NCBI GenBank assembly: GCA_041663585.1 | Contig: JBAYMN010000003.1 | Coordinates: 2,438 to 66,437 of the forward strand | Source of the DNA: Clostridia bacterium | GTDB lineage: Bacteria > Bacillota > Clostridia > Christensenellales > UBA1242 | DNA length: 64,000 nucleotides | Direction: 5' to 3' | Shown here: in pieces, positions 8,749 to 16,615 of the stretch | Layout: each line of letters opens with the position of its first letter | Position numbering within the stretch: the first letter of the stretch is position 1 | Notes under the pieces: generated by a model | Seen by the model: only the letters and a program-made list of their open reading frames with translations | Told to the model about the DNA's origin: nothing | Database searches by the model: none | Position numbers and translations under genes: made by a program

Positions 8749-9777
8749 TTAATCATTATTGTGTTCTTCATTTTGTTCTTGATTTCTATGCTGATGGCGT
8801 TCTTGATTCATTGTTAATTCGCCTTCTTTATTTTCAGCCTTAACATAATATTCATAAGTATTTTCGCCAGTTTCTTCATTGATAATTACTTTAACTTTAA
8901 TGTTACCTTTTTCTATAAGACTAGTTTCATCGGCAACCTTATATTTAATTTTAATTATTGTTTCGCCATCTTCTATTTCTTTTTTAAATGTGTATTCGCC
9001 TTTGTTTCCGCCTTCAATAAACTGTAATCTAATTTTTACACCATCTTCTTCTTGTTCAAGTTTAATTTGAGTTTTAGTTTGGATAGTGCCATTAGCAACT
9101 ACTTCATACATAAATTTTTTTTCCAAACTATCAATTTCGTATTTAACTTTTACATAATTGTCTTTGTCAATTTTACTAAACATAATAATTTCTTGTTCGT
9201 CGCCTTCATTTCTAATCAAGCCTTCAAGTGCATATTCATTTTCACCTACAACAATAAGACCGTTTAGCATAACTTCATACTGTGCTTGCACTGTTTCATC
9301 AGATATGTCATCTTGATGGACTGCATCAGTTTCGTCAATTTCTGCTGTAACTTCTTCATTATAATATAAAGTATAAACTAAACTATTGCCTAAAATGTCC
9401 CTTGTGGTATAGACTAATTTAACAGTATATTCCACTCGGTTGGAAACTTGCGATTCGACTGTTAATGCAGAATCATCGCCTAAATACTGTTCCATAACAT
9501 TTAAGTACTTGTTAATTTCGTCCATCTGGTCTTCTACGGCAAGATTAAAACCAGAACCCGCCATGCTTAAACTTGGTGCGTATGAGAGCGGTAAAGTGGT
9601 GTTTGTTAATAAATCTGCATCAAGCAATTCAGCAGATGAAAGTGCCGAAAAAGCATACACTTCTTGTGCGCTATTAAAAGAAATATATCCTGCTATGTCT
9701 TCGCCTTCACAGCCTATAAAAGCAAGACTGCTTGCAAGCATTACACCTGCTAATAGTATTTTTGGTAATTTTTTCAT
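8749..9777 (-). CDS. Acidic lipoprotein, paralog of the anti-sigma extracellular domain
   Basis: Signal peptide MKKLPKILLAGVMLASSLAFIG-C (lipobox). Blocks such as FNSAQEVYAFSALSSAELLD match FETSEQVYTFSTLSAAKMLD in 7066-8151. Confidence 0.85.
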   Translation of the reverse strand: MKKLPKILLAGVMLASSLAFIGCEGEDIAGYISFNSAQEVYAFSALSSAELLDADLLTNTTLPLSYAPSLSMAGSGFNLAVEDQMDEINKYLNVMEQYLGDDSALTVESQVSNRVEYTVKLVYTTRDILGNSLVYTLYYNEEVTAEIDETDAVHQDDISDETVQAQYEVMLNGLIVVGENEYALEGLIRNEGDEQEIIMFSKIDKDNYVKVKYEIDSLEKKFMYEVVANGTIQTKTQIKLEQEEDGVKIRLQFIEGGNKGEYTFKKEIEDGETIIKIKYKVADETSLIEKGNIKVKVIINEETGENTYEYYVKAENKEGELTMNQERHQHRNQEQNEEHNND

Positions 9778-9900: not shown

Positions 9901-12111
9901 TTAATTAAATCCAATTACAACGCCCATTCTGCAAGATGCATTGTCTGCGTTTGCGTAAACATACATATAGTCGCCAGCAAAGAATGATTGAATTGCCTCA
10001 ATATCAGTCTGTGTTAATGCTGATAATATTGCTAGGTGATCAGCAGCATTTATTGAAGCAAATTTTATAAAATCAGTCCCGTTAAATATATAAAAGTAAG
10101 TACCATCAGTAAATACAATTCCACCATTTGAACTTTGGAAAATAGGAACAGCGGCTTCATATGCAGAAGAATCGTAAAGTGCTGTCAACATTGTTGCTAA
10201 TTCTTGATTTCTTGCTACATAAGATTCGCCTTCTTTATCTAATGCAGTAGTATTTTTATCAATAATACTGTCTGCAATATTAATAGATATTGCTCCTTTT
10301 ACATCATAGGTATCTCCTAAATCATCTGACATAACTACACCAATAAGATTGATATAACCATTATCACCTATTATAGTTAATAATTGAGTTGAATCAAATA
10401 CAAGACTTAAATTAGCCTCATATACTCCTGCTATTTGATTTAAACCCGATAAAACTGCTTTAAGATCAGTAGCGATATTGCTTGCACCGTTCAATTTAAA
10501 CCAATTTTCAAGTCCTGTTACTGGATTTTCAAGTATAGTATTTGAAGTTGTAAGTGTAGAATAATTTCTATCTTCATCATTACCATAATCTGCATTAATA
10601 ATTAATGGGCCACCTGCGCGTTTATATTCACAGTTTTCCATTGTTACATCTGCACCCCAAAGGTAAAACATACAACTAAACGAGTCATAACCTTTGCTAT
10701 TTAAAAGTGTTACTTCGTTAATTACTTCATAGTTTGTAACTTCTACACTTTCATCTGTATCCACCCACTGTCCAAACGGGCAAAGAATTGTGCAAACTGC
10801 TTTTACAATTGTATTATTCATTGTAAAACTTTTTGAACTTGTTCTAAATAATGTAAATCCACCGGAAGCGGCAAGCGTTTCGGTACGACTTGCATTACCA
10901 ATAATATTTATATTTTTGACGGTAACAGGACAAATATAAGGAGTATTAGCGGGAATATTATAATCATCACCTGCAAAACCAAATAAGGTTGAGTGACTTA
11001 TAACACCTTCGCCACCGACACCCATTGTATTTCCTTTAACAATTAAAGGAATTTGTGAGGCATTAAGCGTAAAGTAATTTCCAATAAAGTTGAATTCTGT
11101 ATCTGAATCGGTAATTAAAGAATAGATTGAGCGCCTATCTTTAAGGCTACCCGCAACTTGTTCGGAGTCTTGCTCTTCTTCGGCAGGGGTATAAATAAAG
11201 TCAGCAGGAATATCATTTGCTGTAATCGCAATGTCATTGTGCATAATAATTGCATTGATTGCTTCATAACTTACATTATGATCAGTTTTATAATCTTCCC
11301 AAGCATTATTTGTATTATTATCAATTTTGCTTAAATCTTCGGCAGAATATGCATTCCAGCCATCTATAACTTTAAAAGAAAAACTAATTGGGCCATCTGA
11401 AAATTCATTAAGTTCTTCAAGCGTTAAATAATATGGCCTAACAGTAATTCTAAACTCTTTACCAATTGCACTTTCAGTAAAATCAAATGTGGACCATTCA
11501 TCATCAACAGTTACCATTTCGGTAAGTGCAGTGTCAGTTAGTTCTGTCCAAACATCATCTTGTAATATATCAACACTAGAAATGCTTTTATATTTGTTTA
11601 GTGTGCTAATTTCGCTGTTTAATACAACTGTAATTTCGGGTAAAAATTTAAAAGCATTATCATCGCCTACAAAATAGCCATCATCTAAAATTAAAAATTC
11701 CGTTTCTTTATTATCTATTTTTGTAGCGATATTACTTCTGTATGTTACAATAAAGTTTGGCTTTCCAAAACCTACGAATTGATACGCTTCATCAATATTG
11801 TTGTAAACATTAATTGTAACATTAACCGTGTTTTCTTTATATGTAATTGTTAATGTTTTTTCGCCTGATGTTTCGGTAGAAACTTCACCTAATGTTAAAT
11901 CAGGATAAGCGATTTCTTTTACACTGCCATCTAAATACTCCATAACAAGTACAGTATCAGTAAAATCTAATGTATCTCCAACGACACAAGCAACTGGAAC
12001 AGTGCCTTGTTTTACATACAGTCTATAAAGACCAACTTTACAAGCCGAAAAAAGAATTGGGGCTAATAAAATTAATATTATTGCAAGTAACGCACTAATT
12101 TTCTTATTCAT
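9901..12111 (-). CDS. Large surface lipoprotein with a bacterial Ig-like domain and a probable parallel beta-helix region
   Basis: Start moved to ATG 12111 (GGAG RBS). Lipobox LFSA-C; Ig-like VGDTLDFTDTVLVMEYLDGS...STETSGEKTLTITY; repeated VKNINI / TMNNTIV / VTLLNS / VTMENCEY strands. Confidence 0.65.
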   Translation of the reverse strand: MNKKISALLAIILILLAPILFSACKVGLYRLYVKQGTVPVACVVGDTLDFTDTVLVMEYLDGSVKEIAYPDLTLGEVSTETSGEKTLTITYKENTVNVTINVYNNIDEAYQFVGFGKPNFIVTYRSNIATKIDNKETEFLILDDGYFVGDDNAFKFLPEITVVLNSEISTLNKYKSISSVDILQDDVWTELTDTALTEMVTVDDEWSTFDFTESAIGKEFRITVRPYYLTLEELNEFSDGPISFSFKVIDGWNAYSAEDLSKIDNNTNNAWEDYKTDHNVSYEAINAIIMHNDIAITANDIPADFIYTPAEEEQDSEQVAGSLKDRRSIYSLITDSDTEFNFIGNYFTLNASQIPLIVKGNTMGVGGEGVISHSTLFGFAGDDYNIPANTPYICPVTVKNINIIGNASRTETLAASGGFTLFRTSSKSFTMNNTIVKAVCTILCPFGQWVDTDESVEVTNYEVINEVTLLNSKGYDSFSCMFYLWGADVTMENCEYKRAGGPLIINADYGNDEDRNYSTLTTSNTILENPVTGLENWFKLNGASNIATDLKAVLSGLNQIAGVYEANLSLVFDSTQLLTIIGDNGYINLIGVVMSDDLGDTYDVKGAISINIADSIIDKNTTALDKEGESYVARNQELATMLTALYDSSAYEAAVPIFQSSNGGIVFTDGTYFYIFNGTDFIKFASINAADHLAILSALTQTDIEAIQSFFAGDYMYVYANADNASCRMGVVIGFN

Positions 12112-12254
12112 AATATCTCCTTTAATATTTATTATTGTTTTACATTTGTACAAAATTTATTATTATTTTGGTTAAACTGGTTAGTTGTTTTGAACAAAAT
12201 GAAAAAGACATTTGTATTGTACTATAAGAAAAAATAATTAGCAATTATTTTACA

Positions 12255-12665
12255 TTACATTGCTACAATTCTTATAGTCTCGCGAATGTTTTGACCATCA
12301 GTTGAAGTAATGTTTACAACAATAGTACCTTTTCTGTTAAAAACAACAGTACCTACATCAGTAACATACCCACAGGTAGTTGTTTCATCATAAACAAAAA
12401 TAACATTTCTATATGTGGCATTTTCGGGATAAACTTTCCATTCTAATTGGACAACATTTGTATTCATTTCACCTTCTACAACAGGCGCAAAATATAAACT
12501 TAATATTTTTTCATTTGGTCTTACCTCCGCTTCTACATTAATACATTCTATGCGTTCAACATATAGCGTTTCATTATATGAAGCAATTTTCATACCAAAA
12601 AAACCAATAAATACAATAGAGGCAACATAAATTATTAAAATCATTATAATAACGGATTTTTTCAT
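12255..12665 (-). CDS. Small membrane-anchored protein with an Ig-like (Big_2-type) domain
   Basis: N-terminal TM helix, then VQLEWKVYPENATYRNVIF...VTDVGTVVF...IVVNITSTDG. Confidence 0.7.
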   Translation of the reverse strand: MKKSVIIMILIIYVASIVFIGFFGMKIASYNETLYVERIECINVEAEVRPNEKILSLYFAPVVEGEMNTNVVQLEWKVYPENATYRNVIFVYDETTTCGYVTDVGTVVFNRKGTIVVNITSTDGQNIRETIRIVAM

Positions 12666-12674
12666 ATGTTTCTC

Positions 12675-14327
12675 CTACACTTCTTTATAGTATACTTGCA
12701 CTTTTGCAAAGAACAGATAAATTCTTGCAATCATAAACGCAAGCGCTATACACATAACTTTAATCCAAGCAACCGTAATTCCTTCGGTAAATAGTAGCAA
12801 TGAAACAATAAAGAATAAAAATGCTAATAAAAATGCAAACAAGTTTGATTTGTTTTCATTTGGGTTGTTAGAGTGTCCACCTGTGGTTGCATACTGTTCG
12901 GTTTGCGGATTCATAATGTCCATTTCGGCGCTCCAAAACAAATGACCAACATAAATAAACAGCATTGCAAAAAAGAATAGTATTATGTCACCTATTGGTA
13001 AATTATTTGTAATTTTAAATATTACCATTGTCATAACAAGAGATAAAGTCATTAAACATAAATTAAAAATAAGTTTTGCAAGTAGCGAAATATGATATGT
13101 GGCGGGTTTTGTTTTAATAAGATAAGAGGAACCGCCCTCTTTGCTATAAGCAGAAGCAACTATTGAATTAGTAGATAGTAATATAAGCAGTATAATTAGT
13201 ACATTAAAAGAAAGGGTCATATATTGCCCTAATAGTCCGGTATTCATTGCCGAATAAATTTTGTTAAGCAAAAATATAGCAATCGGAAGCATTGCAAATA
13301 CAGAAAAGTTGCTAAACAATAAATCGGGAGTTCTTAAATTTATTATAAATTCTTTGCGTAAAGAAGATATAAATTTTGAACGAACTTTATTATTTTTTGG
13401 TATAAGCACAGCGTTTTTTTTGTATTCAAAAGGTGTACTTGCCATTTTAAAAAATAGTGGTCTTGTAAGCAAAAAACTTAATCCTAAAATAGAGATAATT
13501 GTAAACACTAAAATACCAAAAGTAATAAATGTTTGCTGAGAAAAACTTGTAAATATAAAGCCCGAACGCGTGCCAGTAATCATTATTACTAAATCATAAA
13601 ATACTTTAAAATTTACAATGAATGCATTTAAAAAATCTTGTATTTGCCAAAACAGAGTTCCCCAAGTGCCTATAATATTAATATTAGCGGGGATAAGTGC
13701 TATTATTTTAATTAACAAATAGAAAACGCCAACCATTATGCCGGCAAACAAAACTACTTGCAAATATTTTCTTTGTTTTAAAAACTGAGCCACAACCATA
13801 AATGGAATTGATAATAATGCCCCTATACTAACAGATAGTGCCGATATAAAAACAAATGCAACTAGTAACCATAAATAATATAAAATCGGAAATCCGGTTA
13901 TAAGTCCATAGCCTATAAACATAGGCACCAAGAATGTAATGTTCTTTTTTAATTCGTAAATATAAAACACAATCAGTTTAGACAAAAAAACTTGATTTGG
14001 TGTAACCGGAAAAGTAAGCAAGATCGCATTATCTTTTGCAAAATATAAATTTTGCATAAGTGAAAATGTGCAAGTAATTGTAGAAAGTGTGAACATAACC
14101 GCAAATATAACAGTTACAACACTAACAGGAACATATCTAATTAGCGAAAATACATTATAATCTCTTGAAAAAGAAAATAATAAGTATGCAAAAACTACAA
14201 CCATTATAAATTTTAAAATACCAAAAACAACATTTGCTATGGTCTGTTTTTTACTTTTTAAATATGATAGGTCAATTTTTTCTTTGAGTTGCATCATAAC
14301 AATAGGTTTAAAAAGTTTTAAATTCAT
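12675..14327 (-). CDS. ABC exporter permease with two internal halves (about 12 TM)
   Basis: Highly hydrophobic 550 aa protein; LLTFPVTPNQVFLSKL and LIKTKPATYHISLLAKL repeats typical of ABC-2-like permeases; TAATG coupling to the upstream ATPase gene. Confidence 0.8.
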   Translation of the reverse strand: MNLKLFKPIVMMQLKEKIDLSYLKSKKQTIANVVFGILKFIMVVVFAYLLFSFSRDYNVFSLIRYVPVSVVTVIFAVMFTLSTITCTFSLMQNLYFAKDNAILLTFPVTPNQVFLSKLIVFYIYELKKNITFLVPMFIGYGLITGFPILYYLWLLVAFVFISALSVSIGALLSIPFMVVAQFLKQRKYLQVVLFAGIMVGVFYLLIKIIALIPANINIIGTWGTLFWQIQDFLNAFIVNFKVFYDLVIMITGTRSGFIFTSFSQQTFITFGILVFTIISILGLSFLLTRPLFFKMASTPFEYKKNAVLIPKNNKVRSKFISSLRKEFIINLRTPDLLFSNFSVFAMLPIAIFLLNKIYSAMNTGLLGQYMTLSFNVLIILLILLSTNSIVASAYSKEGGSSYLIKTKPATYHISLLAKLIFNLCLMTLSLVMTMVIFKITNNLPIGDIILFFFAMLFIYVGHLFWSAEMDIMNPQTEQYATTGGHSNNPNENKSNLFAFLLAFLFFIVSLLLFTEGITVAWIKVMCIALAFMIARIYLFFAKVQVYYKEV

Positions 14328-16507
14328 TATTTACTACCTATTACCTTTAAATAATAATCTTCAAGTATTACATTTTGTTTTTCTAGTTTTTTAACATCAG
14401 CAGTGTCTATGATTTTGCCTTGTTTTATAATAGCAATTTTATCGCAAATTCTTTCTACGACATCAATAATATGACTTGAAAAGAAAACAATGTTGCCTTT
14501 TTTTGCATGTTCTTTCATACACTCTTTAACCTCAAAAATGCTATTTGGGTCTAATCCGGTTAATGGTTCATCAAGTATCCATAATTTTGGCTCGTGTATA
14601 AGTGCCGACATTATTGCAATTTTTTGTTTCATACCGTGGCTGTAAGTTTTCATTTGATTATCAAATGCTTGTTCAAGTGCAAAAATTTTTAAATACTTTT
14701 CCATTCGTGTATTGCGGTCTTTTAAATTAACTTGATACAAATCTGCAATATAGTTAATGTATTCCCTACCCGTAAGTTTTTCATATAATGCATAATGGTC
14801 AGGTACATAGCCAACAAGTTGTTTTGCTTGTACTGACTGTTTATCTACATCATAACCACAAACTGAAATGGTACCGCTTGTAATAGGCTGTATTCCTACA
14901 ATACTTTTAATAATAGTACTTTTACCAGAACCATTTGGTCCTAAAAAACCAAAAATTTCACCGCCGTTAACTTCTAAATTAGCATCTTCTACCGCAAAAA
15001 CTTTGCTACTTGAATACTTTTTTGAAAAGTTATTAAGCACTAATTTATTTATTTCTTCTTTATTCATAGGTGCATTTGCCCCCCTTTCGCCCAATGTTTT
15101 TAATAATAAAAATTTATCCATTTTAAGTTGTGCTTTTCGTTTAAATATATCGCCAAGTTGGTCAAAAAACACATATGACTGCTCATATATAAACCACATA
15201 CCAAATGATGTTGCTACATAAACAAGAAAGAATAAAAACTGATACAACGGATAAAAAGTAAAATTTAAATTACCAATATTAAATGAAACTACAACAAGCC
15301 TTATATCCTCCGCCCATCTTCCAAGTTTTTCTGCCACAAAGTCGCTATTAACAAAGAAAAAGTCGCTTGTTCCGTAGTTAGTGAACCACGCATTTATAAA
15401 AATTATAAAAACAAAATATATTGTAAATGCAGTGAGCGAATAAATAAATTGTTTAAGTTTTGGCCTTGGATATATTTTTAATGCGACTATTACAATAGGT
15501 AAGAAAAATGCAGTAAAATGATTTACCCAGAATACAACTAAATTTGTGCTTGTAATATTTAAAGCACCATAGTTAGGCATAAGCATTGCTAAAAAAGCGC
15601 CTAGTACATTTATAAAGAAAGAAAAATAAAACAGTTTTTCCCAGTGGAATATAAGACAAATTACCACGATATACATTGCGGTATTACATAAGTGCAGTGG
15701 CCAATTCATTGGGGTAAATAATGTATCAGCCTTAAAATTAATCATAAATATTAAAAGTACCCCTAAACTATAATAAAGAATTGCAAATTTAATTGCATCT
15801 TTGTTTAGTTTATGCAATACAAAAAACATTCCTAGCGGTATTAAAATACCCGCATAAATAAATATACGATGATAAATTGTAAAATCAAGCACTTCTATGG
15901 TCGGATTTCCGTTTCCAAATAAAGCGCGCAAAGCGTATGCGGGCATTGTGCAAATTATTACTGGCAAAATTGAAAGCAATAAATTTTTTACTTCTGTTTT
16001 TGTTATTTTAAAATAACCTGTTTTTATAAGTACTAGCACAGAATAAAAAAGAATAATTGCAATTTCAATACTCATCAAAATTGCTCTAAAATTTAAATTT
16101 ACAAAAGATGTACCAGTAATTGCAGTAATGTTTGGAAGTAAAAATACTAAATTTATTAATGCAATCGGTAGCACAAAAAACTTAATAAGATTGGTCAAAT
16201 TTTTTACATTAAAAAATGGATACAAAATAATTAATAAAACAGTGGCATAAGTTAACCAAGTTAAAATAATTGTAACAGCAGTAATTTCTATACTTATGTC
16301 AGGACCACCTGTAAGCATAAATACAGTTTCAATAGTGGCATCGCCTAATAAATACCTAGCATAAAAAACGAGTGCAAGCGTTAAAGAGAACACTTTATAT
16401 ATATTGCTTTTTGTATCATTTAATTTTTGCTTAAACACAAATTTTGAAAGCAATACAAATACTACAATTAAAATCGCAATTATAAAATAATAAGATGCTT
16501 TTACCAC
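14327..16507 (-). CDS. YwaF/TMEM164-like multi-pass membrane domain fused to an ABC transporter ATPase
   Basis: GTG start 16507 has a GGAG RBS (track start 16519). About 450 aa membrane region with WPLHLCN and FWVNHF; C-terminal NBD with GPNGSGKST, YSHGMKQK, WILDEP, SSH. Confidence 0.85.
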   Translation of the reverse strand: MVKASYYFIIAILIVVFVLLSKFVFKQKLNDTKSNIYKVFSLTLALVFYARYLLGDATIETVFMLTGGPDISIEITAVTIILTWLTYATVLLIILYPFFNVKNLTNLIKFFVLPIALINLVFLLPNITAITGTSFVNLNFRAILMSIEIAIILFYSVLVLIKTGYFKITKTEVKNLLLSILPVIICTMPAYALRALFGNGNPTIEVLDFTIYHRIFIYAGILIPLGMFFVLHKLNKDAIKFAILYYSLGVLLIFMINFKADTLFTPMNWPLHLCNTAMYIVVICLIFHWEKLFYFSFFINVLGAFLAMLMPNYGALNITSTNLVVFWVNHFTAFFLPIVIVALKIYPRPKLKQFIYSLTAFTIYFVFIIFINAWFTNYGTSDFFFVNSDFVAEKLGRWAEDIRLVVVSFNIGNLNFTFYPLYQFLFFLVYVATSFGMWFIYEQSYVFFDQLGDIFKRKAQLKMDKFLLLKTLGERGANAPMNKEEINKLVLNNFSKKYSSSKVFAVEDANLEVNGGEIFGFLGPNGSGKSTIIKSIVGIQPITSGTISVCGYDVDKQSVQAKQLVGYVPDHYALYEKLTGREYINYIADLYQVNLKDRNTRMEKYLKIFALEQAFDNQMKTYSHGMKQKIAIMSALIHEPKLWILDEPLTGLDPNSIFEVKECMKEHAKKGNIVFFSSHIIDVVERICDKIAIIKQGKIIDTADVKKLEKQNVILEDYYLKVIGSK

Positions 16508-16586
16508 TATATTCTCCAAACTTTTGTAATGTATTTTGTTACGTATGTATTATATGCATAATTCATTATTTCATAAATACCAAAAA

Positions 16587-16615
16587 ATTATATCAAATTA
16601 AATTGTAATTAGCAA
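16587..16615 (-). promoter_or_regulatory. SigmaA-type promoter of the ABC operon
   Basis: TTGCTA-17nt-TATAAT with TG extension. Confidence 0.65.

Follow-up and report, generated by a model that had tools for sequence, protein, structure and literature searches.

A TMEM164/YwaF-type membrane domain fused to an ABC ATPase in a conserved four-gene module of Clostridia

The four genes of the locus

The window, meaning the whole stretch of 64,000 nucleotides that was analysed, comes from the 1.03 Mb genome (96.5% complete) of a small gut bacterium. A module of four genes lies on the minus strand of the window, as do the parts of the module given below, and is read in the order fusion, PF16949 permease, Big_2 anchor protein and Big_3 lipoprotein. 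Every coordinate and feature that the earlier note had reported for positions 12255-16615 is present, with the HLC motif (15694-15686) and the His of FWVNHF (15520-15518) placed exactly. The first gene encodes a membrane domain of 13 transmembrane (TM) helices joined to an ABC ATPase. Its open reading frame, with PF14808 and PF00005 matches, can be read from a TTG codon (14327..16519), but a GTG at 16507 is the likelier start (14327..16507), since it stands 5 nt past a GGAGA ribosome-binding site and gives a protein of 726 aa, the length of the database cluster representative P0002, to which the fusion protein is 100% identical. A promoter-like site at 16587..16615 (TTGCTA-17-TATAAT with an extended TG, recognised purely as a 10/12 consensus match) ranks first in the promoter scan and comes straight after the terminator hairpin (16667-16621) of yqeY, the gene upstream of the operon.

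The start of the second gene (12675..14327) overlaps the stop of the fusion in the sequence TAATG, so the separate, coupled permease described in the earlier note is indeed there; the 12 TM helices that went with that description are a hydropathy estimate. The 550 aa product is placed in the PF16949/PF09847 family by its PF16949 match (28.1 bits against a cutoff of 25.7). PF16949 was also matched in 21 of 28 permease orthologues, with a best E value of 3.9e-13, and PF09847 is a precomputed assignment on orthologues. Two similar halves, both bearing a KDN/EG...LLT.P-like motif, appear to make up the protein, which has no large extracytoplasmic domain. A sequence search returned no solved structure for the family.

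The third gene (12255..12665) starts 9 nt past the permease stop, after an AGGAGA ribosome-binding site, and encodes a small signal-anchored protein of 136 aa with an N-terminal TM helix and a C-terminal Ig-like domain of the Big_2 type. The membrane anchor and the 9-nt gap agree with what had been noted before, while the Ig-like character is seen at the level of the family: the protein's own sequence has no Pfam match, 5 of 29 orthologues match Big_2, and the family profile matches Big_2 Ig domains in the PDB. The family consensus is MKKS, a TM helix and then PxNAT...DGS. The fourth gene (9901..12111, with its ATG at 12111) encodes a surface lipoprotein of 736 aa with the lipobox LFSAC, whose Cys24 is invariant in 19/19 homologues, followed by a Big_3 domain (matched in 13 of the 19). 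The roughly 600 aa after Big_3 match no Pfam family, and in the PDB search the protein finds matches through its Big_3 part only. Its central region contains repeated GN motifs. No terminator separates this gene from that of the anchor protein, and a possible internal promoter lies before it (12216..12244; TTGCTA-17-TACAAT, a weak 9/12 consensus match).

The membrane domain of the fusion protein

The fusion protein can be divided into four parts. An N-terminal extension with six predicted TM helices (aa 1-205; 15893..16507) precedes a YwaF/TMEM164-type domain with seven (aa 206-445; 15173..15892). A K/R-rich linker (aa 446-487; 15047..15172) prolongs TM13 as a long cytoplasmic helix (helix 420-471 in the AF2 model), and the ABC nucleotide-binding domain closes the chain (aa 488-726; 14330..15046). 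AF2 modelled the membrane domain with confidence (pLDDT 86, pTM 0.87) as 13 helices, and with a cytoplasmic ATPase the loops between them fit the positive-inside rule. The family named in the earlier note was upheld by profile search: PF14808 (TMEM164) matches aa 219-419 with 50 bits, above the Pfam cutoff of 25 bits (E 9.5e-14 to 2.8e-13), and PF00005 matches aa 511-653, so that an ABC ATPase behind some 450 aa of membrane domain is what the gene encodes. TIGR02206 (NCBIfam) gives an E value of 2e-14 and 53 bits, under its trusted cutoff of 75 bits. The idea that the region is instead a conventional ABC transmembrane domain was examined and rejected, as Pfam, NCBIfam and the fold search gave it no match to an ABC transmembrane family or to any solved fold, ABC or other. 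The extension has no family match in Pfam or NCBIfam and is shared with unfused paralogues some 480 aa long; hhalign (probability 6.6%) gave no sign that it duplicates the YwaF domain.

The AIG1/TMEM164/GPC1/YwaF/YpjA ("ATGY") superfamily, to which TMEM164 and YwaF (TIGR02206) belong, offers the closest comparison. TMEM164 draws on a phospholipid donor to form an acyl-Cys123 thioester, and His181 lies in its catalytic pocket (bioRxiv 10.1101/2022.07.06.498872; PMC12830759); the catalytic dyad of the family has been described on the second and fourth core helices, TM2 and TM4 (Reed et al., bioRxiv 10.1101/2022.07.06.498872). The corresponding helices of the fusion carry C274, within H272-L273-C274 (15686..15694), where core TM2 begins and TM9 has its predicted outer end, and H330 (15518..15520) in TM11, which is core TM4. 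The two are 56 residues apart, compared with 58 in the human protein, and the TMEM164 cryo-EM structure has seven helices, as does this domain. Differences are equally plain, in that the domain has six extra TM helices before it and an ABC ATPase after it, the motif reads P-L-H-L-C-N rather than the P-C-H of human TMEM164, and nothing conserved in the domain clearly corresponds to Glu106, the metal ligand reported for TMEM164. Since the solved TMEM164 structure was retrieved neither by sequence profiles nor by Foldseek with the fusion's membrane domain, the family assignment rests on the Pfam and NCBIfam models and on the position of the motif.

Conservation of the Cys and His, on which the earlier proposal depended, proved to be complete. 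H272, L273, C274 and H330 are identical in 81/81 fused orthologues, as are H213, R214, P270, N300, P349, N372 and G396, in proteins with an overall identity of 45-57%. The putative acyl-accepting Cys is retained by the unfused long and short YwaF forms, and H330 in all 18 aligned forms, whether fused, unfused or short. By family match and invariant residues, then, the last seven helices of the 13 are a putative Cys-His acyltransferase of the TMEM164/YwaF type. With the ATPase in the cytoplasm, the predicted topology places C274 where TM9 ends on the outer side and H330 nine residues in from the outer end of TM11, suggesting that the site opens toward the outer-leaflet side of the membrane.

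It is conceivable, if unlikely, that the YwaF-like domain is no working enzyme here, and that it anchors an otherwise ordinary ABC-2 exporter (of a drug, peptide or polymer, for instance) in the membrane, binds a lipid or substrate for it, or acts as its regulatory sensor. The TIGR02206 score would accord with such a role, as would the fact that the papers searched report no catalysis by a YwaF protein of bacteria; so would the named proteins closest to the ATPase, which include drug and peptide exporters such as DrrA, the gallidermin immunity ATPase and PmtA. However, the Cys, both His and about ten more pocket-region residues are fully invariant in the 81 orthologues, whose overall identity is roughly 50%, a pattern that resembles an active site and is not expected of a mere anchor. 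The six N-terminal helices could anchor the protein equally well, yet they are its least conserved part (mean column consensus 0.40 among the 81 fused orthologues, against 0.63 for the YwaF-type domain), and a constant synteny with two surface proteins is ill-suited to a drug pump.

Conservation of the module

The fusion is no oddity of one assembly, as the earlier note had allowed it might be, for the same fused open reading frame is found in at least 599 species-representative genomes, mostly of small-genome Christensenellales-like Clostridia, which is far beyond chance. The combination of fusion and operon is common among uncultured relatives. Wherever a locus is long enough, the order fusion, permease, Big_2, Big_3 is kept, and this synteny is a new result. 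The permease adjoins the fusion in 72/72 such loci, and it is also the neighbour in fused clades at only 37-40% identity; the Big_2 anchor protein is syntenic in 69, mostly a few nt after the permease stop; and a Big_3 lipoprotein homologue lies downstream in at least 55 of 80. Overall, the gene order is retained in 69-72 of 80 loci, the others ending too early to show it, and the suspected link to Ig-domain surface proteins is borne out by synteny in essentially every locus. The gaps among the first three genes are mostly -4 to +13 nt, these genes are mostly translationally coupled, and the genes flanking the module vary from genome to genome. Where the entire 13-TM domain occurs as an unfused paralogue, no ABC genes adjoin it, which indicates that the domain can work without a transporter and counts against the machine proposed below. 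No published study of this combination of an acyltransferase-like domain and an ABC ATPase was found.

The ATPase itself is, as judged from its sequence, complete and of the ABC-2/ABCA type. All 81 fused orthologues keep its Walker A Lys, Walker B Asp-Glu and H-loop His, and the Q-loop position is occupied by Asp. The best NCBIfam matches are DrrA and GldA; the best PDB profile matches are the nucleotide-binding domains of ABCA3/4/1/7, followed by TM0544, NosF, Rv1218c and LptB; and the best fold matches are EcsA, TM0544 and LptB. The types nearest to it (ABC-2/ABCA, NosF, EcsA and LptB) serve lipid transporters or extracytoplasmic partner proteins.

The closeness of NosF and EcsA raises the thought that nothing is transported, and that ATP hydrolysis, relayed by the permease and the Big_2 anchor, alters the conformation or activity of the surface lipoprotein, in the manner of NosDFY, FtsEX or MacB-type systems, with the acyltransferase acting on a local lipid or partner. 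A permease without a large extracytoplasmic domain of its own, beside two extracytoplasmic proteins that are strictly co-inherited with it, would suit this arrangement, and the GN repeats could fit a NosD-like beta-helix, an impression from the sequence only. In Pfam and the PDB, however, nothing ties the lipoprotein to NosD or to a beta-helix, and the fusion of an acyltransferase to the motor would be left unexplained; we regard this account as improbable.

A possible envelope machine

The reading that we favour, at a probability of roughly 0.45, is that the module encodes a conserved four-component envelope ABC machine, coupling ATP-driven lipid handling to acyl transfer in the outer leaflet with the help of two surface proteins. 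If it resembles ABC-2 systems, its ATPase dimer would come from two copies of the fusion and would dock on one 12-TM ABC-2-type permease, with the long helix tethering each ATPase to its 13-TM domain. Driven by ATP, the permease may move so as to deliver or remove a membrane lipid or a lipid-anchored molecule. The tethered enzyme domains would load a phospholipid acyl chain onto Cys274, forming a thioester, and then transfer the chain to an acceptor on the outer side. On the extracytoplasmic side, the machine would consist of the Big_2 anchor protein and the Big_3 lipoprotein.

Parts of such a machine have precedents. Rv1217c is a single 12-TM permease that works with an ATPase dimer, and Rv1217c-Rv1218c, like the DrrAB, NatAB and EcsAB types, has an ATPase of the same subfamily and a permease that is a separate, translationally coupled gene, apparently of two similar halves. 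In those systems the ATPase is soluble, whereas here every copy is covalently bound to a 13-TM enzyme-like domain. NosDFY-NosL, LptB2FGC and MlaFEDB likewise co-encode an ABC-2-like or LptB-like ATPase with a permease, an anchored extracytoplasmic partner and a lipoprotein, but none has a fused acyltransferase, and their partners (the NosD beta-helix, the LptC beta-jellyroll and MCE domains) have no detectable homology to the Big_2 and Big_3 proteins. The PCAT exporters also carry an enzyme domain at the N-terminus of the ABC ATPase polypeptide, tying chemistry to transport as in the fusion. Their enzyme, however, is a soluble C39 peptidase in a chain that includes the transmembrane domain, unlike the polytopic enzyme domain and separate transmembrane protein found here.

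The acyl-Cys thioester that Lnt forms from a phospholipid donor prompts comparison with lipoprotein maturation, in which the outer-leaflet Cys-His domain would N-acylate or re-acylate lipoproteins, the ABC part would extract or position them as Lol does, and the co-encoded lipoprotein would be the substrate. Lnt together with LolCDE follows the same logic: on the outer side of the membrane a Cys-thioester transacylase draws on a phospholipid donor, and it is paired with an ABC motor and a lipoprotein. The outward-facing predicted site, the invariant lipobox Cys of the adjacent large protein and the presence of Lgt in the genome agree with this, as does the parallel between Lnt chemistry and the acyl-Cys of TMEM164 (PMC12830759). 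Against it, the CN-hydrolase fold of Lnt is unrelated to the enzyme domain, and LolCDE is a MacB-like ABC system whose large periplasmic domains in LolC/E-type proteins have no equivalent in this permease. There, moreover, the two steps belong to separate proteins and the destination is the outer membrane, whereas no sign was seen here of an outer membrane to receive released lipoproteins. A general lipoprotein enzyme would also need no lasting synteny with one lipoprotein and an Ig-anchor protein, and the other nearby lipoprotein (342 aa, 8749-9777) is not syntenic with the module. No defining feature of Lnt/Lol-style release was found at the locus, and a role in maturation seems a long shot.

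For the four-component machine, the most plausible physiological role is perhaps the remodelling or scavenging of external lipids, as the window genome, at its 96.5% completeness, has no FabF/B-type ketoacyl synthase (PF00109). FabF occurs in 1/22 fusion-bearing genomes and in 7/22 neighbours without the fusion (Fisher p = 0.046, uncorrected for phylogeny). The link to scavenging is nevertheless weak, because most of the related genomes without the fusion (15/22) are also without FabF. PlsY is present in the window genome alongside Lgt.

The operon and its fused first gene

The operon is read from the minus strand and begins directly behind the hairpin (16667-16621) that would terminate a yqeY-like gene. 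The top promoter-like match in the scan, TTGCTA-17-TATAAT with an extended TG, is found here at 16615-16587 and is a match to consensus only. The open reading frame of gene 1, the fusion, was called at 14327-16519, and its likely start is a GTG at 16507 behind GGAGA, which gives a protein of 726 amino acids, the same length as the 100%-identical cluster representative P0002. The 550 amino acid long permease of gene 2 (12675-14327) starts within the stop codon of gene 1 (TAATG), and gene 3 (12255-12665; 136 amino acids) begins 9 nt past gene 2, behind AGGAGA. Gene 4 (9901-12111) encodes a lipoprotein, with an ATG preceding a signal peptide that contains LFSAC. The 143 nt that separate it from gene 3 hold one weak promoter-like site and no terminator-like site. 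The fused gene, the coupled permease and the Ig-like neighbour had been described at these positions in an earlier note, and all were confirmed; its codon positions for the HLC motif (H272-L273-C274, 15694-15686) and for the histidine of FWVNHF (H330, 15520-15518) were exact.

The two parts of the fusion are recognized separately by Pfam, PF14808 (TMEM164) from residue 215 or 219 to 419 with 50.3-51.9 bits (cutoff 25; E 2.8e-13 to about 1e-13), and PF00005 at residues 511-653 (E 1e-27). When the first 488 residues were searched alone, PF14808 was the sole Pfam match. In NCBIfam, TIGR02206, the "TMEM164-related integral membrane acyltransferase", was matched with 53.4 bits (E 2e-14), under its trusted cutoff of 75, which makes the domain a related but divergent branch. 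The YwaF/TMEM164 identity proposed for the N-terminal membrane domain was upheld by the Pfam family. The possibility, also raised in the earlier note, that residues 1-470 are a conventional ABC transmembrane domain was rejected, as no ABC membrane family was found there, even with the E limit relaxed to 10 in Pfam and to 1 in NCBIfam, and no ABC transmembrane fold was among the Foldseek matches.

The TMEM164-like membrane domain

Confident AlphaFold models of the full-length fusion (pLDDT 81.7) and of residues 1-474 alone (pLDDT 86.2, pTM 0.87) have 13 transmembrane helices, connected to the ATPase by a long helix (420-471). In 32 orthologues compared, loops facing the ATPase are short and rich in Lys/Arg and those on the opposite side are longer and acidic, a charge pattern that points to a topology with the N-terminus outside and the C-terminus inside. 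Helices 7-13 make up the TMEM164-like domain, and helices 1-6 (residues 1-205) match no family; the idea that this extension is a degenerate duplicate of the YwaF domain was set aside with an hhalign probability of 6.6%. Foldseek found no significantly similar solved fold for the membrane domain in the PDB (best E 0.45), and with the full-length model the only matches were ATPases. A TMEM164 chain in the PDB was reached neither by Foldseek nor by three profile searches, one of them dominated by the ATPase, so the mapping of Cys and His onto TMEM164 rests on helix position and spacing.

C274 is the second residue of helix 9 (273-287), at its predicted outer end, and H330 is within helix 11 (321-342), nine residues in from the predicted outer end. 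The two residues fall on the second and fourth of the last six helices, and the number of helices in the domain agrees with solved TMEM164. In the AIG1/TMEM164/GPC1/YwaF/YpjA superfamily, a nucleophile (Cys, Ser or Thr) is located on core TM2 and an invariant His on core TM4 (Reed et al., bioRxiv 10.1101/2022.07.06.498872), and the fusion has both, with C274 on TM2 and H330 on TM4 of the six-helix core. The spacing from Cys to His is 56 residues in the fusion and 58 in human TMEM164. The latter was recently shown to transfer acyl chains from phospholipids to lysolipids, its acyl-Cys intermediate has been solved, and its cryo-EM structure has an acyl-Cys123 thioester and a metal held by His181 and His124 (PMC12830759). 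The histidine near the cysteine is placed differently in the two proteins, as H272 stands two residues before Cys in the fusion, whereas that of TMEM164 stands one residue after it.

Cys and His are conserved throughout: the 81 fused orthologues show no variation at H213, R214, P270, H272, C274, N300, H330, P349, N372 and G396. Both a counterpart of C274 and H330 itself are also kept more widely, the histidine in 18/18 of the fused, unfused and short forms aligned. In the predicted topology, the membrane domain carries its conserved polar residues in the outer half or in loops on the outside, among them R51 and E148 of the extension and an NSDF...KLG.W segment. The mean column consensus over the 81 orthologues is lowest in helices 1-6 (0.40), rises to 0.63 in the YwaF domain and reaches 0.80 in the ATPase, and together with the invariant residues this indicates that an enzyme-like pocket and the motor are both under strong constraint. 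The domain could instead serve an ordinary exporter as an anchor or sensor without catalysis, a reading that appears unlikely beside so constrained a pocket.

The ATPase, the permease and the surface proteins

The ATPase has the motifs GPNGSGKST (Walker A), YSHGMKQ (signature), ILDEP (Walker B) and SSH (H-loop), and K529, S623, D646, E647 and H679 are invariant in 81/81 fused orthologues. The Q-loop position (residue 570, 14798-14800) is Asp, in VPDH, and not Gln, again in all 81; acidic residues are common here among ATPases of the DrrA/NatA-type subfamily. The nearest relatives of the ATPase by profile are the nucleotide-binding domains of the lipid transporters ABCA3/4/1/7, then TM0544, NosF, Rv1218c and LptB; by fold they are EcsA, TM0544 and LptB, and by NCBIfam DrrA and GldA. 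The ATPase is of the ABC-2 type. In many orthologues, among them P0008, P0043, P0052 and P0120, it is followed by 30-150 residues rich in Lys, Glu and Asn (alignment A1, columns 880-1029), a tail that the window protein lacks. The presence of NosF among the profile relatives brings to mind a NosDFY-like device for mechanotransmission alone, which is improbable. NosDFY-L, LptB2FGC and MlaFEDB all combine an ABC ATPase with outside partners; none of their defining features was found here, and the likeness is one of functional analogy only.

The permease of the window matches PF16949 just over threshold (28.1 bits; cutoff 25.7), and 21 of 28 orthologues match it as well (best E 3.9e-13); PF09847, "12TM_1", is a precomputed match in many orthologues. 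Hydropathy gives about 12 helices with short loops and no large outside domain. Two cytoplasmic loops carry similar motifs, YFAKDN-ILLTFPV...SKL and YSKEGGSSYLIKTKP...AKL, which suggests that the permease is built of two related halves; hhalign of the halves was not significant (probability 1%), and the KDN/EG...LLT.P...K-L motifs were nevertheless in register. By sequence, no relative was found in the PDB, and all matches listed in a search for distant relatives were close orthologues. Between the tenth and eleventh predicted helices, residues 462-495 (12843-12944) form a strongly conserved polar loop, HLxWSAExDIMNPQxEQYxTxGxxxNNPNExKS, of which H462, D470, N473 and N490 are invariant in 28 orthologues.

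In the gene 3 protein, an N-terminal transmembrane helix precedes a C-terminal domain whose consensus reads PxNAT...DGS. Alone, the window protein matches no Pfam family; Big_2 (PF02368) is matched by 5 of 29 orthologues (best E 3.3e-7), and the family profile matches the Big_2 domains of the phage T5 tail tube protein, a "BIG2 domain-containing protein" and intimin, so that its Big_2 membership holds at the level of the family. In the gene 4 protein, the lipobox LFSAC ends in Cys24, which is invariant in 19/19 orthologues, and with Lgt encoded in the same genome (E 2e-65) the protein can be classed as a lipoprotein. Big_3 was found in 13 of the 19. Among orthologues the length varies between about 670 and 1450 residues, and some have additional repeat domains. 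The remainder of about 600 residues matches no known family (Pfam at E up to 5, NCBIfam, PDB by profile), and an impression of a beta-helix found no support there. A 342 amino acid lipoprotein (8749-9777) is not a member of the module, as it shows no synteny in 80 loci.

The lipobox and Lgt bring up the alternative of a machine for lipoprotein acylation, which is also improbable. Membership in the Lnt/LolCDE pathway was rejected: neither the CN-hydrolase fold of Lnt nor a MacB-type permease with a large extracytoplasmic domain was matched, and the loops of the permease are short. The logic of Lnt followed by Lol, of which no defining feature was found, is a functional analogy only.

Distribution, lipid context and a possible mechanism

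A protein search returned 889 clusters, the best 120 of which all carry PF14808 and PF00005 (53-88% identity) and go by no more specific a name than "YwaF family protein" or "ATP-binding cassette domain-containing protein". Far from being unique to this assembly, the fusion is encoded at at least 599 loci among species-representative genomes, mostly MAGs labelled Clostridia or Christensenellales; no cultured carrier was found. In the 80 loci fetched, the order of fusion, permease, small protein and large protein was kept wherever the contig was long enough, with the permease in 72, the small protein in 69 and the large protein in at least 55, and the gaps among the first three genes were mostly -4 to +13 nt. 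Separate gene calls on two long contigs gave the four-gene set again, flanked by unrelated neighbours. The permease adjoins even the four fused genes at 37-40% identity (4/4), and the small and the large protein are each present in 2/4. The fused gene was present in 17 of 201 species in an even sample of the order and in 2 of 300 in a sample of the class. Of the interpretation in the earlier note, domain identity, conservation and partnership with the neighbouring genes were borne out; its coupled lipid-modify-and-export or lipoprotein-release machine, chemistry included, is putative.

The window genome (1.03 Mb; 96.5% estimated completeness) contains PlsY and Lgt and no FabF/B-type ketoacyl synthase (PF00109), and the organism probably lacks fatty-acid synthesis and must take fatty acids up. 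FabF was found in 1 of 22 fusion-bearing genomes and in 7 of 22 neighbours without the fusion (Fisher p = 0.046, kinship ignored), so most of the neighbours compared lack it too, and its absence fits a role for the fusion in handling external lipids only weakly. As 21 of 22 of the small-genome gut carriers are without FabF/B, the system may bear on how such bacteria build membranes from material found in their surroundings.

A mechanism can be built on what the sequences show, namely which domains are present, that the putative catalytic residues and those of the ATPase are invariant, that an ABC-2-clan permease is encoded separately and that the four genes keep strict synteny. Two fusion chains would form a dimer via their ATPases on a single pseudo-symmetric permease, with each Cys/His pocket, by the predicted topology, opening to the outer leaflet. 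An acyl chain would pass, as in TMEM164, from a phospholipid to the cysteine and on to an acceptor, and the Big_2 anchor and the lipoprotein would be partners on the outside. The module could be an undescribed envelope machine, an ABC motor hard-wired to two CoA-independent Cys-His transacylases at the outer leaflet, which fatty-acid-auxotrophic gut Clostridia use with an Ig-anchor and a surface lipoprotein to capture and re-tailor external lipids or lipid anchors; we put the probability of this at roughly one in four. If true, this would give bacterial YwaF proteins a first function.

Taken one by one, the TMEM164/YwaF domain, the ABC-2 ATPase, the 12-TM ABC-2-clan permease, the Ig-like surface proteins and the lipoprotein are parts of known kinds. 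In the literature searched, neither the fusion nor the combination was described, and no function was found for any bacterial YwaF protein, though these are widespread. In hundreds of species the fusion has stayed together with a permease and a pair of surface proteins, which provides a concrete, testable functional context for YwaF, one that points to ATP-coupled lipid chemistry on the outer side of the membrane. The fusion would also be a new ABC architecture, with a polytopic enzyme joined to the ATPase and not to the transmembrane domain.

Among 1.84 billion proteins, a profile of the YwaF-like domain recovered no more than 615 clusters (50% identity). These are fused forms of ~700-830 amino acids and unfused forms of ~450-500, the latter already with the six-helix extension and retaining Cys and His, with P-L-Q-L-C in place of P-L-H-L-C. 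No ABC genes were seen beside the unfused 13-TM paralogues, whose neighbours include a short YwaF gene, a PAP2 phosphatase and a signal peptidase. Unfused paralogues of ~480 amino acids cover the whole 13-TM domain (fetched loci L083:5261-7437, on contig G301:C4, and L084:5995-7428, on G371:C1); in one genome such a paralogue overlaps a 246 amino acid YwaF gene immediately upstream, and a second genome has a PAP2 lipid phosphatase and a signal peptidase close to the paralogue. The window genome has a second, free-standing YwaF/TMEM164-family gene of 248 amino acids (G000:C1:52527-53201, fetched as L082; 49 bits). The gene just after the module encodes a CDP-alcohol phosphatidyltransferase in one genome (locus L086:17141-17743) and a fatty-acid-binding DegV protein in another (L088:15540-16406), neighbours that are lipid-related but not conserved and may be there by chance. 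One further genome, G477, has two fused genes, of 845 and 782 amino acids (G477:C10:137456-138892 and G477:C9:204969-206357, locus L092), the second of which is divergent and yet adjoins a permease homologue.
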